The notes beneath the pieces were generated by a model. It was not told the DNA's origin and did not search any database. It saw nothing but the letters and a program-made list of their open reading frames with translations. From the UHGV virus genome UHGV-0329897: DNA of 12,544 bases. One strand, given 5' to 3'. The translations under genes were made by a program, and so were the position numbers. This DNA comes from a virus. Positions 2,087-11,960 of this stretch are shown here, piece after piece. Each line of letters starts with the position of its first letter. Position 1 is the first letter of the stretch.

Positions 2087-2410
2087 CTAGGTAAGAGGAA
2101 TCGATTTTCCCTTAATTTTCTGGCGTCCACTGCATGTTATGCCGCGTTCGCCAGGCTTGCTGTACCATGTGCGCTGATTCTTGCGCTCAATACGTTGCAG
2201 GTTGCTTTCAATCTGTTCGTGGTATTCAGCCAGCACTGTAAGGTCTATCGGATTCAGTGCGCTTTCTACTCGTGATTTCGGTTTGCGATTCAGCGAGAGA
2301 ATAGGGCGGTTAACTGGTTTTGCGCTTACCCCAACCAACAGGGGATTTGCTGCTTTCCATTGAGCCTGTTTCTCTGCGCGACGTTCGCGGCGGCGTGTTT
2401 GTGCATCCAT
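2087..2410 (-). CDS. N: N transcription antitermination protein (107 aa)
   Basis: Internal ATG at 2410 of the track ORF gives MDAQTRRRERRAEKQAQWKAANPLLVGVSAKPVNRPILSLNRKPKSRVESALNPIDLTVLAEYH..., including the arginine-rich boxB-binding N-terminus. The upstream extension in the track is leader sequence. Confidence 0.9.
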   Translation of the reverse strand: MDAQTRRRERRAEKQAQWKAANPLLVGVSAKPVNRPILSLNRKPKSRVESALNPIDLTVLAEYHEQIESNLQRIERKNQRTWYSKPGERGITCSGRQKIKGKSIPLT

Positions 2411-2842: not shown

Positions 2843-3595
2843 TTATGCTGCAAGTCTCTTAATCCAAGTCTCTCTTTTGGAGAATGGTAGAACTTGGCTT
2901 GATTCATGGAAGAGTAAGGAGAGTTGTTGCATTTGATCACCAATTGCTTCGCTGTCTATAACAACAAATCTGTTGTTATACTCCTCACTTGAAGCTTTAA
3001 GATCAATTAGTTTCCCAAGCAATGAGTAAGCACTATTCCAGCTTCCTCCGTGTTTCACGCTTGATGTAAAAACGTATTTAGGTATGTCGGTTTTTATTGT
3101 TACAGGGACGGTAATTTGATGTCCACTCAAGCCATATACGTTTTCACGAAGAGAAAGTGCCTCTCTAAGCTCTGTGTGATATAGATAATCAATAACCATA
3201 CTTTCAAACTTTTCAGCTTGAACTGGCTGATACCAGTCTAACGACAAAGTTGATGCGAGTATACCAGCTCTAATTATGTTCGATGTAATCGCACCGACAT
3301 CCTTTTCTGTTGCCCAAGCAATGATTTCTCCTCGAGCATTGAGTTCTGCGCCTTCTTTAAGCAGTAATTGTCGTATCTCATCAAGTCGTTTTTTGGTAAG
3401 CGAGATCCCTCTTGCCTCCATATTCATTAAGGCATCGCATCTGTCACTAACTAAATACCTACCATTGACTTCACGGATAAAGGCACCGACATGCTCTCCA
3501 TCATCACAGTAAGTGAATGGACTGATAATTCTCAAGGTCTTGCCTATTGGATGGCATTCGAAACCTAGTTGTGAGATCACTGTTGAGCACATCAT
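2843..3595 (-). CDS. Hypothetical protein (250 aa), distal gene of the cI-adjacent cargo operon; no family recognised
   Basis: Long minus-strand ORF starting ATG ATG at 3595/3592; its start overlaps the upstream gene's stop (ATGA). Immediately followed by a terminator. No obvious transmembrane segment or catalytic motif that I can name. Confidence 0.7.
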   Translation of the reverse strand: MMCSTVISQLGFECHPIGKTLRIISPFTYCDDGEHVGAFIREVNGRYLVSDRCDALMNMEARGISLTKKRLDEIRQLLLKEGAELNARGEIIAWATEKDVGAITSNIIRAGILASTLSLDWYQPVQAEKFESMVIDYLYHTELREALSLRENVYGLSGHQITVPVTIKTDIPKYVFTSSVKHGGSWNSAYSLLGKLIDLKASSEEYNNRFVVIDSEAIGDQMQQLSLLFHESSQVLPFSKRETWIKRLAA

Positions 3596-4149
3596 ATTCC
3601 AAACCCCATTTGCCCCGACTCATCTTCAAGCGGTAAAGGTATTCTCCCAGAGTAAGTTATGTTCAGATGTTTACAGAAGTAATTCCAATACCCTACCAGG
3701 TCATCTGGGTTTATGTCATCTTCGATTGGAAACGCTATTCTATCACTATAGTATCCAGCTTCTTCATAGTATACATGGTAATGAGCACCGTAAATGATAT
3801 CTTGGTACTTCGGATGATCGACCTTGTAACTATTCGTGTGTTTGTCAAAGTGATAGGTATCTACCGCGAAAACCCTCTTGTTATGATAGAAAGCAATAAT
3901 ATTTATTTTAGGGTAAGAAATCGGGTCATCAGGTTCTGAATCCTGATCTGGTTTCCATTTCAGTTCAAACTTTAGCCCTTGTATAGGTATACAATCCTCA
4001 TCCAAGGGGATGATATGAGCTTGTAGCCACATATCAGAGCGACTTGGTTTCTGTTTCCATTTAACGCCAGAAAAGTTAACTATTTTTTTACAATAAAGTA
4101 CTTTATCAACTTCTACTTGGCTTGGCTGATAATCATCTATTTTTGCCAA
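3592..4149 (-). CDS. Hypothetical acidic, aromatic-rich protein (185 aa), proximal gene of the cI-adjacent cargo operon; no family recognised
   Basis: Minus-strand ORF beginning 39 nt downstream of the cI stop. The codon at 4149-4147 is TTG (track prints M) preceded by AGGGCGG 7 nt upstream; the first in-frame ATG is codon 40. Contains acidic clusters (PDQDSEPDDP, EDDINPDD, LEDESGQ). Confidence 0.65.
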   Translation of the reverse strand: MAKIDDYQPSQVEVDKVLYCKKIVNFSGVKWKQKPSRSDMWLQAHIIPLDEDCIPIQGLKFELKWKPDQDSEPDDPISYPKINIIAFYHNKRVFAVDTYHFDKHTNSYKVDHPKYQDIIYGAHYHVYYEEAGYYSDRIAFPIEDDINPDDLVGYWNYFCKHLNITYSGRIPLPLEDESGQMGFGI

Positions 4150-4188: not shown

Positions 4189-4905
<717 letters not shown>

Positions 4906-4912
4906 TTAAATC

Positions 4913-4990
4913 TATCACCGCAAGGGATAAATATCTAACACCGTGCGTGTTGACTATTTTACCTCTAGCGGTGATAATAATTGCATGTAC
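4913..4990. promoter_or_regulatory. Right operator and divergent promoters: oR3 (4913-4929), oR2 (4936-4952), oR1 (4960-4976), pR (-35 TTGACT 4950-4955, -10 GATAAT 4973-4978), pRM on the opposite strand
   Basis: Three 17-bp operator sites (tatcaccgcaagggata, taacaccgtgcgtgttg, tacctctagcggtgata) between the cI and cro starts; strong SD AGGAGG before the cro ATG. Confidence 0.85.
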
Positions 4991-5210: not shown

Positions 5211-5242
5211 CGCTCTTACACATCACAGCCCTGAAAAAGGGC
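5211..5242 (+). promoter_or_regulatory. nutR (boxA CGCTCTTACA 5211-5220; boxB GCCCTGAAAAAGGGC 5228-5242)
   Basis: Canonical boxA followed by the boxB hairpin, just downstream of cro. Confidence 0.8.
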
Positions 5243-5350: not shown

Positions 5351-5615
5351 ACTACGAATCGAGAGTGCGTTGCTTAACAAAATCGCAATGCTTGGAACTG
5401 AGAAGACAGCGGAAGCTGTGGGAGTTGATAAGTCGCAGATCAGCAGGTGGAAGAGAGACTGGATTCCCAAGTTCTCAATGCTGCTTGCTGTTCTTGAATG
5501 GGGGGTCGTTGACGACGACATGGCTCGATTGGCGCGACAAGTTGCTGCGATTCTCACCAATAAAAAACGCCCGGCGGCAACCGAGCGTTCTGAACAAATT
5601 CAGATGGAGTTCTGA
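5322..5615 (+). CDS. cII: CII transcriptional activator (97 aa)
   Basis: ATG at 5322 gives MVRANKRNEALRIESALLNKIAMLGTEKTAEAVGVDKSQISRWKRDWIPKFSMLLAVLEWGVVDDDMARLARQVAAILTNKKRPAATERSEQIQMEF. The track ORF begins at an upstream alternative start. Confidence 0.95.
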   Translation: MVRANKRNEALRIESALLNKIAMLGTEKTAEAVGVDKSQISRWKRDWIPKFSMLLAVLEWGVVDDDMARLARQVAAILTNKKRPAATERSEQIQMEF

Positions 5616-5637
5616 GGTAATTACTGGATCTATCAAC
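5561..5637 (-). ncRNA. oop: oop antisense RNA (about 77 nt) with its t0 terminator
   Basis: Minus strand from 5637 reads GTTGATAGATCCAGTAATGACCTCAGAACTCCATCTGGATTTGTTCAGAACGCTCGGTTGCCGCCGGGCGTTTTTTAT, the sequence I know as lambda oop/t0: GC hairpin plus T6 tract, antisense to the cII 3' end. Confidence 0.75.
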
Positions 5638-7557: not shown

Positions 7558-7590
7558 AGGCCTGCTGGTAATCGCAGGCCTTTTTATTTG
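7558..7590 (+). terminator. tR2 intrinsic terminator
   Basis: Hairpin aggcctgc-tggtaatc-gcaggcct followed by TTTTTATTTGG, matching the lambda tR2 sequence as I recall it. Confidence 0.8.
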
Positions 7591-7605: not shown

Positions 7606-8046
7606 ATGAAAAAACTAACCTTTGAAATTCGATCTCCAGCACATCAGCAGAACGCCATTCAAGCTATCCAGCAAATCCTTCCAGACCCAACCAAACCAAT
7701 CGTAGTAACCATTCAGGAACGCAACCGCAGCTTAGACCAGAATCGAAAGCTTTGGGCTTGCCTTGGTGACGTCTCTCGTCAGGTTGAATGGCATGGTCGC
7801 TGGCTGGATGCAGAAAGCTGGAAGTGCGTTTTTACAGCAGCATTAAAGCAGCAGGACGTTGTTCCTAACCTTGCCGGGAATGGCTTTGTGGTAATAGGCC
7901 AGTCAACCAGCAGGATGCGTGTAAGCGAATTTGCGGAGCTATTAGAGCTTATACAGGCATTCGGTACAGAGCGTGGCGTTAAGTGGTCAGACGAAGCGCG
8001 ACTAGCTCTCGAATGGAAAGCGCGATGGGGAGATCGGGCTGCATGA
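7606..8046 (+). CDS. ninB: NinB (Orf-family recombination mediator), 146 aa
   Basis: ATG at 7606 with SD GAGGGAAG gives MKKLTFEIRSPAHQQNAIQAIQQILPDPTKPIVVTIQERNRSLDQNRKLWACLGD... The track start at 7588 is a TTG. Confidence 0.9.
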   Translation: MKKLTFEIRSPAHQQNAIQAIQQILPDPTKPIVVTIQERNRSLDQNRKLWACLGDVSRQVEWHGRWLDAESWKCVFTAALKQQDVVPNLAGNGFVVIGQSTSRMRVSEFAELLELIQAFGTERGVKWSDEARLALEWKARWGDRAA

Positions 8047-8570
8047 CTATCAAATCAAATACGCCAGCACACGACAAGGACTGCTGGCAAACGCCGCTTT
8101 GGCTTTTTGATGCACTGGATATTGAGTTTGGATTCTGGCTGGATTCGGCAGCGAGCGACAAAAATGCTCTGTGCGCTCACTGGTTAACTGAGGCCGACGA
8201 CGCGCTAAATTCTGAGTGGATAAGCCACGGTGCAATCTGGAATAACCCACCGTACAGCAATATCAGGCCGTGGGTGGAAAAAGCCGCTGAGCAGTGCATA
8301 CAACAGCGACAGACGGTAGTGATGCTTGTGCCAGAGGATATGTCTGTCGGATGGTTCAGCAAGGCTCTGGAGAGTATTGACGAAGTTCGCATCATCACTG
8401 ATGGACGGATTAATTTTATCGAACCATCGACAGGGCTGGAGAAGAAGGGAAACAGCAAAGGTTCCATGCTGCTGATTTGGCGACCGTTCATCAGTCCTCG
8501 ACGGATGTTTACTACCGTATCCAAAGCGGCATTGATGGCGATCGGGCAGGGCGTCAGGAGGGCTGCATGA
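8043..8570 (+). CDS. Phage orphan DNA N6-adenine methyltransferase (phage T1 Dam-like family), 175 aa
   Basis: ATG at 8043 overlaps the ninB stop (ATGA). Contains the N-terminal DxxCWQTP motif and the NPPY catalytic motif (WNNPPYSN), occupying the slot where lambda has ninC. No adjacent restriction endonuclease gene. Confidence 0.8.
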
Positions 8571-8743
8571 GACGACAGCGGCGAAGTTTCACCGACATCA
8601 TCTGCGAAAACTGCAAATACCTTCCAACGAAACGCTCCAGAAATAAACGCAAGCCAATCCCAAAAGAATCTGACGTAAAAACCTTCAACTACACGGCTCA
8701 CCTGTGGGATATCCGGTGGCTAAGACATCGTGCGAGGAAATGA
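8567..8743 (+). CDS. ninE: NinE (58 aa)
   Basis: ATG at 8567 overlaps the methyltransferase stop; translation [58 protein letters not shown]. The track ORF starts at an upstream alternative codon. Confidence 0.8.
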
Positions 8744-9087
8744 CAATGGATTATTCACAGTTAAGTGATTTTGAAATTAACCGAATGGTAGGAGACATAA
8801 TTTTTAAAGGCCTTTGGGCATGTAAGCCTGAAACATCAGGGAATAACACCAACAAATGGTATTACGGAAATGCCGATGTAAGTCTTGAGCCATTAAACCC
8901 TTTGCCTGACTACTGCAATGATCCGAGCGCTTCATGGCCGATTATTGAGAAATACAGGATTTCTATCTTAGACCAGTTAACTGAATGGTGTGTGGATGCA
9001 AAAGGCGTAAGCCCAATATTTGATACCAGACCTCTCCGCGCCGCCATGATTGTCTTTCTCCTGATGCAGGAGGCCAATAATGCTTAG
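8740..9087 (+). CDS. Hypothetical nin-region protein (115 aa), function unknown
   Basis: ATG at 8740 overlaps the ninE stop (ATGA), with a second ATG at 8746 and GAGGAAA upstream. Translation [36 protein letters not shown]...; no motif I can assign. Confidence 0.6.
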
Positions 9088-9274
9088 CCCATCTCAATCC
9101 CTTCAATACCTGAAAGGAAGCATAGAGCGGGCTTCAATGTGCACAGAGTGGATTCTATCTAGGTTTAGCGCATACAGAAGATTGCCGGTAAAGGGCATGC
9201 CAAGCAAGTCGATGCTGCATATGCAAAAGAATGCGCGCTGGAAGGTATGGCGAGAACACAGGTTATCTGGCTGA
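9080..9274 (+). CDS. NinF-like N-terminus (about 18 codons) running out of frame into ybcO-like 3' sequence; likely a chimeric product
   Basis: Strong SD AGGAGG 7 nt before the ATG at 9080. The first residues [18 protein letters not shown] resemble NinF; the remainder is R/K/W/H-rich, as expected for wrong-frame translation of the ybcO-like remnant. Confidence 0.4.
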
Positions 9275-9793: not shown

Positions 9794-9878
9794 AGTCAGA
9801 GATAACAATCAACTAATACTGTTTTGTTGATTTTTGCTTGTAATTGGCGTTCTGGTCTGATTTTTGTGGAGTAAGTTG

Positions 9879-10262
9879 ATGCGTGATATTCAGATGGTTC
9901 TTGAGCGTTGGGGAGCGTGGGCGGCTAATAATCATGAAGATGTGACCTGGTCGTCCATTGCCGCCGGTTTTAAGGGATTAATTACTTCAAAAGTAAAATC
10001 TCGCCCGCAATGTTGTGACGATGACGCGATGATTATTTGCGGGTGCATGGCCCGTCTGAAAAAGAACAACAGCGATTTGCACGATTTATTAGTAGATTAT
10101 TATGTAGTCGGTATGACATTCATGTCACTGGCAGGTAAGCATTGCTGCTCTGATGGTTATATCGGGAAAAGGTTACAGAAGGCTGAGGGCATAATTGAAG
10201 GGATGTTAATGGCATTAGATATCCGGTTAGAGATGGATATCGTTGTTAATAACTCTAATTAA
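9879..10262 (+). CDS. quuD: Q-type late-gene antiterminator QuuD (127 aa)
   Basis: ATG at 9879 gives [71 protein letters not shown]..., matching DLP12 QuuD as I recall it. The track ORF starts at an upstream GTG. Confidence 0.85.
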
Positions 10263-10450: not shown

Positions 10451-11533
10451 TTAGAACTGGTAAACCATACCTACAGCAACGATATCATCGGTAGCAACGC
10501 CAGATGCTTTCGTGAAATCGCTCTTATCAATCAGGTTGATTTTGTAATCAACAAAAGTGGACATATTTTTGTTGAAGTAATAGGTTGCACCTACATCAAT
10601 ATATTCAACCAGGTCCTGATCACCCCACGCACCCAAGTCTTTTCCTTTAGATTGCAGGTAAGCAACGGACGGACGCAGACCGAAGTCGAACTGATATTGT
10701 GCAACTACTTCGAAGTTTTGTGCTTTGTTGGCAATATGGTTATTACCAAAAACAGTCATGTTCTGGGTTTCAGAATAGGTGGTAGCCAGATAGATGTTGT
10801 TCGCATCATATTTCAGACCAGCTGCCCATACTTCAGCATTTTGACCAGATGCATTCAGGCTGTTGTTACCGTAGATAACCTGATTATTAGTGCGGTCAGA
10901 TTTAGCATAGGTTGCACCTACACCGAATCCTTCATACTCATAAGTAGTGGAGAAACCGAAACCATCACCATTAGCTTCAGTTACGTCAGTGCGGTCATTT
11001 TTACCCTGATACTGAGCAGCAAAGTTCAGACCATCAACCAGACCAAAGAAGTCGTTGTTACGATAAGTTGCAACACCAGTGGTGCGACCAGTCATGAACA
11101 CATCTGTTTGGGTCCAGGTATCGCCACCGAATTCTGGCAGAACGTCAGTCCACGCACCGATGTCGTATGCTACACCGTAGTTACGGCCGTAATCGATTGA
11201 GCCGTAGTCACCGAATTTCAGGCCTGCAAATGCAAGACGGGTTTTGTCTTTGGAGGAACCTTGAGATTCAGCGCGGTTGCCTTTGAATTCATATTCCCAC
11301 TGACCGAAACCAGTCAGTTGATCGTTGATTTGGGTTTCACCTTTGAAGCCAAGACGGGCATAAGTAGTATCACCATCATCTGCATCATTAGAGGAGAAGT
11401 AGTGCTTAGCATTAACTTTCCCGTACAGATCCAGCTTGTTACTGTCTTTATTATAAATTTCAGCTGCCTGAGCAGACATCGCCATCAGTACTGATGCAGC
11501 TACAGCAGAAATTGCCACTGTTAATTTTTTCAT
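10451..11533 (-). CDS. nmpC: Outer-membrane general porin, NmpC/OmpD-type (360-aa precursor)
   Basis: ATG at 11533 with SD AAGGG; signal peptide [23 protein letters not shown] then AEIYNKD...; C-terminal beta-barrel signature ending ...VAVGMVYQF. Uninterrupted reading frame. The track start at 11593 is an upstream alternative start. Confidence 0.9.
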
Positions 11534-11960
11534 CGTGAGCCCTTTTTTTGAACTATTATTAAAAAATGATGTCACTGCGCGATAAATATTCATCTAATCA
11601 ATGTGATTATTTCAAGATGTAAGTTTTGGTTTCTCATTTGATTTGTGAAGTAGATCTCTATTTTTATCTGAACTTTTTCTATCGAATCCTATTCATGGCT
11701 CTTGGCTGAATAAAAATAAATCTATTAGCCAATTTATATTAATGGCTGTTATTTATAAGTGCTCTATAATTTGAAGGTTCAATTTAAATCGGCTAAAAAT
11801 AACGCTGGAAATTATTTGTTGGTTATTTGTTGAGATTTTCTTATGTATTTGTAGTGGTGTTTTCAATACTCGGTAGCATTCTCGCAAATATCATTTAGTG
11901 GTTTACGTACGTAAAAAATTGGTTATGCTGTTAAGAGTGGTTACTTCGTCACACAGCTTA

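Follow-up and report, generated by a model that had tools for sequence, protein, structure and literature searches.

The window analysed here, a stretch of 12,544 nucleotides, derives from a lambdoid prophage and forms its immunity-to-Q segment; the nin region encodes an orphan DNA N6-adenine methyltransferase of the T1 Dam family. Judged by homology, the enzymatic identity of the protein is secure. We consider it very likely that it works as a stand-alone GATC-methylating enzyme, expressed from pR with the help of N, that boosts the methylation of replicating phage DNA. The gene is already known and catalogued and ranks with the most frequent accessory genes in lambdoid and Stx prophages. The finding is ordinary because the gene is long known and extremely common, and its discovery value is small: standard pipelines name the gene correctly, and the window adds no new handle. 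Its interest for phage-host epigenetics and Stx-prophage biology is moderate and lies in the presence of a second GATC methylase, under strong purifying selection, in phages of a Dam-positive host.

The sole Pfam match of the protein is PF05869 ("Dam"; E = 1.8e-64; score 216.9 bits, cut-off 28.1; match to profile positions 1-167 of 169); the same search gave no match to MT-A70 or, at E <= 0.01, to PF02086. The NCBIfam equivalog TIGR01712 ("phage N-6-adenine-methyltransferase") is matched over its full length (3.3e-79, 264.2 bits against a cut-off of 97.05, positions 1-165 of 165); PHROG 111 (phrog_111, "DNA methyltransferase") is matched at 2e-87. The preliminary description had assigned the protein to the T1 Dam family of N6-adenine methyltransferases, and the PF05869 and TIGR01712 profiles, both above their cut-offs, bear this out together with 34% identity to T1 Dam and 173 of 175 residues shared with VT2-Sakai Dam. 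It had also described a 175-residue frame coupled to ninB and ninE and carrying DxxCWQTP and NPPY motifs, all of which we recovered (Table 1).

Table 1. Features of the window that bear on the methyltransferase gene and its expression
Feature	Position	Strand	Basis
N gene (lambda N)	2087..2410	-	gene/family identification
pR-like promoter, TTGACT-17-GATAAT	4950..4978	+	promoter scan; region 97.7% identical to lambda
nutR boxB GCCCTGAAAAAGGGC, exact; site that N requires to drive read-through into the nin region	5228..5242	+	sequence match
tR2-like intrinsic terminator between ren and ninB; 8-bp stem with 6 GC pairs, then TTTTTATTT	7558..7589	+	terminator scan
ninB (orf), recombination mediator; upstream translationally coupled gene	7606..8046	+	PF05772, 9e-55
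Left border GGGCTGCATGA; contains ninB stop and methyltransferase start	8036..8046	+	exact repeat
Orphan DNA N6-adenine methyltransferase CDS, 175 aa	8043..8570	+	ORF; PF05869 and TIGR01712 profiles; M.EcoVT2Dam / HK97 gp62 allele
DKDCWQTP codons (aa 11-18), conserved N-terminal motif	8073..8096	+	alignment; counterparts RDLWSTP in T1 Dam, DLWSTP in M.Phi93DAM
WLDSA codons (aa 32-36), on predicted strand beta-1	8136..8150	+	alignment, structure prediction
NPPY codons (aa 68-71), catalytic motif IV, right after predicted strand 64-68	8244..8255	+	alignment, structure prediction
Right border, second exact GGGCTGCATGA; contains methyltransferase stop and ninE start	8560..8570	+	exact repeat
ninE, downstream translationally coupled gene	8567..8743	+	PF05322, 4e-43

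The reading frame comprises 176 codons including the stop (528 bp) and is joined to its neighbours by ATGA overlaps on both sides: its ATG (8043-8045) shares bases with the ninB stop TGA (8044-8046), and its own stop TGA (8568-8570) shares bases with the ninE ATG (8567-8569). An alternative in-frame GTG at 7983 would give a protein of 195 residues. The start at ATG 8043 is common to all homologues and falls where the homology to lambda stops. An antisense frame of 174 codons (8177..8701, minus strand) has no family match, and we take it to have arisen by chance opposite a conserved gene.

The alignment set consisted of the protein and 27 Enterobacterales homologues with 58-83% identity to it. 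Residues N68, P69, P70, Y71, S72, T17, P18, L33, D34 and A36 are invariant in this alignment, as are about 40 further positions, and D13 and W15 are conserved in at least 90% of the sequences. Damage to the NPPY region, named beforehand as the finding that would contradict the assignment, was looked for by alignment, and NPPY proved intact and invariant; it also aligns with the NPPY of T1 Dam and of M.Phi93DAM. DKDCWQTP resembles, and may correspond to, motif X of the gamma-class methyltransferases, and WLDSA is probably a degenerate motif-I (SAM-binding) region, so that the order W-x-TP, LD-AA, NPPY (motifs X, I, IV) reads as gamma-like. The protein has the Class I (Rossmann-type) SAM-methyltransferase fold of the N6-adenine kind and is a bare, minimal catalytic core that lacks a separate target-recognition domain. 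The structure model has pLDDT below 50 at residues 37-52, which limits what it shows of cofactor binding. The low pN/pS values indicate that the gene is under purifying selection: it differs from the VT2-Sakai allele by 8 synonymous and 2 non-synonymous changes (pN/pS 0.07), and the value against an Edwardsiella homologue is 0.26.

At the DNA level, the gene is 98-99.6% identical to annotated dam or methyltransferase genes in 244 phage records, including SfI, mEp043, mEp213, HK97 (98.5% to gene 62), VT2-Sakai and many Stx1 and Stx2 phages. It also occurs in 1566 of 5426 complete E. coli genomes, more than a quarter, and the PGAP name given to it there is "phage N-6-adenine-methyltransferase". 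In sequence the protein is 100% identical to its mEp043 counterpart, and it differs from VT2-Sakai Dam only by I60V and I112V, both conservative. VT2-Sakai Dam (M.EcoVT2Dam; also in Phi24B, Min27 and 933W-type phages), HK97 gp62, mEp043 and SfI dam are therefore the same gene as the one in the window, with the same length of 528 bp and the same ninB-dam-ninE order in the M.EcoVT2Dam group. The prophage around it differs: it combines lambda immunity with a DLP12-like Q-porin late region, where the VT2-Sakai type has stx. The nearest relative was reportedly cloned and characterised in 2001. Several public gene calls of 209-240 residues (P0001, P0005, P0011, P0013 and P0023) join the methyltransferase to NinE, CII, RusA or NinB domains; their likeliest origin is a frameshift at an ATGA overlap or an artefact of a mosaic junction, and not a real fusion.

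T1 Dam (M.EcoT1Dam), the prototype of PF05869, is GATC-specific. It aligns with residues 5-147 of the window protein at 34% identity over 158 residues (E 1e-26) and shares with it W-x-TP, LD-AAS and NPPYS; both match PF05869 and both are orphan phage enzymes. T1 Dam is longer (237 residues): it has about 45 additional residues at the N terminus and, past the region that aligns to residue 109, an insertion of 14 residues. It comes from a virulent siphovirus, whereas the gene described here sits in a temperate nin region. A second characterised relative, M.Phi93DAM of the lactococcal 936-type phage Phi93, is a PF05869 member (6e-34) with 33% identity to the window protein. It is shorter (140 residues), lacks the C-terminal beta-hairpin and helix, retains NPPY as the sole classical motif recognised, and is encoded in the packaging module of a virulent phage of a Gram-positive host without Dam. 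In contrast, the alpha-class enzymes E. coli Dam and T4 Dam (PF02086) show only fold-level likeness to the window protein, with 8-10% identity in structural alignment; their SAM motif is N-terminal, their recognition domain central and their DPPY C-terminal, whereas NPPY lies in the N-terminal half of the window protein. The two groups look like a case of convergence on GATC and not of orthology. Hia5, a non-specific adenine methyltransferase, was also considered as a T1 Dam family member and was dropped, as T1, HP1 and VT2 Dam do not appear in the Hia5 paper.

For the window enzyme, GATC specificity is a safe inference, predicted from its 99% identity to M.EcoVT2Dam, an enzyme described in PMC6602927, with reference to Radlinska & Bujnicki 2001 (PMID 11720311), as "known to target 5'-GATC-3'". 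Within the family, SMRT sequencing together with DpnI and DpnII digestion established that M.Phi93DAM methylates GATC, and the enzyme shields DNA from DpnII (PMC4190342). It is very improbable that the substrate is something other than plain duplex GATC, such as relaxed sequence contexts, single-stranded DNA, replication intermediates or even RNA, or that the enzyme depends on a partner such as NinB. Such a reading would draw on the small size of the protein (175 residues, a bare catalytic core with no target-recognition domain), on the translational coupling of the gene to that of the ssDNA-binding NinB, and on M.EcoPA8orf6770P, an annotated GATC DNA methyltransferase that needed a partner and preferred 16S rRNA (PMC10810198). 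Like the window gene, M.EcoPA8orf6770P and M.EcoGV are prophage-borne in similar phages and annotated as GATC adenine methyltransferases. However, they are MT-A70-type enzymes with a DPPW motif, a position at the phage left end, a need for a partner and a preference for 16S rRNA (PMC10810198), whereas the window protein has NPPY and belongs to PF05869. We rejected the link to RNA methylation on these grounds (MT-A70 with DPPW, left end, dependence on the partner PNB-2), and an RNA substrate for the window enzyme is unlikely. The 99%-identical VT2 Dam and the smaller M.Phi93DAM methylate GATC when expressed alone (PMC6602927; PMC4190342). Nor is a partnership with NinB obligate, because the homologues in Yersinia, Providencia and Edwardsiella lack a ninB neighbour.

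The preliminary description had the gene sitting where lambda has ninC, and alignment to lambda places it there, in fact in place of both ninC and ninD. Identity to lambda (97.7% by BLAST) begins at 4862, stops exactly with the final base of ninB (8046) and resumes at 8574 inside ninE; lambda carries ninC and ninD between these two genes, and the methyltransferase gene is therefore a precise cassette that replaces them. It is a nin-region module in its whole setting, lying between ninB and ninE, downstream of pR/nutR and the tR2-type terminator, with ATGA overlaps. The 11-bp direct repeat GGGCTGCATGA borders the cassette on both sides; with at most one mismatch allowed, the window contains 3 matches where 0.23 are expected. 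Because the repeat lies at both borders, ninB and the methyltransferase gene both end in R-A-A-stop, and homologues in other genera finish alike, in ..A-A-stop with an ATGA or GTGA overlap. Lambda bears GCTGCATGA, with the same core, where ninB meets ninC and where ninC meets ninD. This fits the conserved junctions that separate interchangeable nin modules in lambdoid phages, and the repeat is likely a recombination linker for the swapping of such modules.

The gene had been called an orphan with no neighbouring endonuclease, and its surroundings agree. No restriction endonuclease gene lies near it: the genes downstream are ninE, ninX, a 64-residue frame, rusA, ylcG and Q, and the sole nuclease nearby is the junction resolvase RusA. 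The full gene order of the window is sieB, N, a two-gene cassette, cI, cro, cII, O, P, ren, ninB, methyltransferase, ninE, ninX, rusA, ylcG, Q and porin. No nuclease gene lies beside the homologues in Yersinia, Providencia and Edwardsiella prophages either; there the homologues occur within strings of early genes. That the gene might nevertheless supply the modification function in a restriction-modification or other defence system, and thus be a defence gene, is extremely improbable and, as we see it, close to refuted. PADLOC type II methyltransferase models match the protein weakly (4e-7 and 1e-5), but its best PADLOC models are those for orphan methyltransferases (oMTase, 3.7e-19), and neither the window nor the relatives have an adjacent nuclease gene. 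The same prophage does carry, in the rex slot, a cassette that matches the PADLOC candidate PDC-M24; its genes, however, lie on the other strand at a distance of 4 kb, within the lysogenic operon, have no nuclease family match, and turn up in 7 phage records only, whereas the methyltransferase is in 244. We considered the pair as the cognate nuclease and rejected it, as it has no nuclease or other informative match.

The preliminary description had it expressed in the early-right operon from pR; pR is indeed upstream, and the promoter scan found no other promoter-like site on the plus strand upstream of the gene. The claim needs refinement, as transcription must pass tR1 and the tR2-like terminator (7558-7581, then a T run). 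With nutR boxB and this terminator between pR and the gene, the gene should be an N-dependent, delayed-early one, and it should be silent in the lysogen. In line with this, Phi24B carries the same gene (100% identical to that of VT2-Sakai), and its expression there changed significantly when norfloxacin was used for induction; of the five CMAT genes tested, four, apparently including dam, had patterns that were associated with the lytic cycle (PMC3342100).

On the mechanism that we favour, the gene would be off under cI repression and, on induction or infection, would be transcribed from pR; only N-modified polymerase would get past tR1 and the tR2-like terminator to reach it, and the protein would be made by translational coupling within ninB-dam-ninE. 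NPPY would hold the flipped-out adenine while the methyl group of SAM is passed to N6 of the A in GATC. Replication of phage DNA would outpace the few host Dam molecules, and the phage enzyme would supply extra methylation capacity, so that packaged genomes would leave the cell fully methylated at GATC. Lambda DNA from lytic growth is under-methylated. Full methylation would protect the DNA from MboI/DpnII-type restriction in the next host and would avoid the effects of hemi-methylated or unmethylated GATC, namely MutH nicking and SeqA binding.

Candidate biological roles are the completion of GATC methylation in progeny, anti-restriction, and the modulation of lysogeny. By analogy, an anti-restriction role, which the preliminary description had put forward, is plausible, and protection from DpnII-type restriction has a direct experimental precedent inside the PF05869 family in M.Phi93DAM (PMC4190342). 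Protection from GATC cutters looks partly redundant, because the E. coli host already methylates GATC with its own Dam, and full GATC methylation would sensitise phage DNA to methyl-dependent (DpnI-type) enzymes. It seems very improbable that this minimal enzyme, strongly expressed in lytic growth, also methylates non-GATC or single-stranded sites and blunts a wider set of restriction defences or of defences that sense methylation state; if true, this would explain why the gene persists in more than one in four E. coli genomes despite a Dam-positive host.

The same GATC enzyme could instead be under selection for regulation, supplementing host Dam so as to govern the expression of phage or host genes, the stability of lysogeny or spontaneous induction, and might act through low-level expression in the lysogen or early after induction. 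We regard this as the less likely reading. The Phi24B Dam was detected as an antigen expressed in lysogen cultures, and the Phi24B authors propose that it supplements host Dam in the upkeep of lysogeny (PMC3342100); they cite a need for host Dam in stable 933W lysogeny. PamA, a Dam-like, GATC-methylating protein with NPPY from an S. aureus prophage, rewires host gene expression (PMC12435837). The moderate depletion of GATC in the window (37 against 56 expected) would fit a regulatory role as well. However, the S. aureus host of PamA is not known to have a Dam of its own, whereas E. coli already methylates GATC. The position of the gene behind a cI-repressed promoter and two terminators also argues against a regulatory role, as does the qPCR work on Phi24B that links the gene to the lytic cycle (PMC3342100).

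Over the whole window, GATC occurs 37 times against 56 expected from trinucleotides (ratio 0.66, moderately depleted); of the 4-bp palindromes, CTAG and GTAC alone are depleted more strongly. A single GATC lies inside the methyltransferase gene, at 8540.

When the window was compared with complete E. coli genomes, the best matches covered only 84% of it; the prophage is therefore a mosaic that is absent as such from the genome collection. In the Providencia prophages L008, L009 and L010, whose homologue is 63-65% identical, a Lar-type restriction-alleviation protein is encoded a few genes downstream (about 5440-5630) and a second methyltransferase, of the N6_N4 type, follows the Q gene (about 7890-8534), which points to several anti-restriction functions clustered in one early region.

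Directly downstream of cI, in the slot that lambda fills with rexA and rexB, the window has two overlapping genes of unknown function (2843..3595 and 3592..4149, both minus strand). They encode 250 residues with a DUF1828 domain and 185 residues with a weak DUF6978 match, and both fall into PHROGs of unknown function. The pair matches the PADLOC candidate defence system PDC-M24 (M24B 9e-10, M24A 5e-4) and is found at 99.7% identity in only 7 phage records (among them ev017, ev207, an Stx1a phage, PhiR57_1 and PhiR63_2). The pair has the look of a candidate defence cassette encoded by the prophage, and its interest probably exceeds that of the methyltransferase.

The 64-residue frame between ninX and rusA (9080..9274, plus strand) has no Pfam or PHROG match. 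In the closest annotated genome, the matching stretch is called a truncated DUF1364 pseudogene, so the frame is probably what is left of a nin gene that was deleted. The Q antiterminator gene (9864..10262) has just downstream of it, on the opposite strand, a full-length porin gene of the OmpC/NmpC/Lc type (10451..11593, minus strand; Porin_1, 3.7e-153). This site is a position for morons of the lysogenic-conversion type, and a related prophage has the same Q-porin arrangement, with the lysis genes essD/rrrD downstream of the porin.
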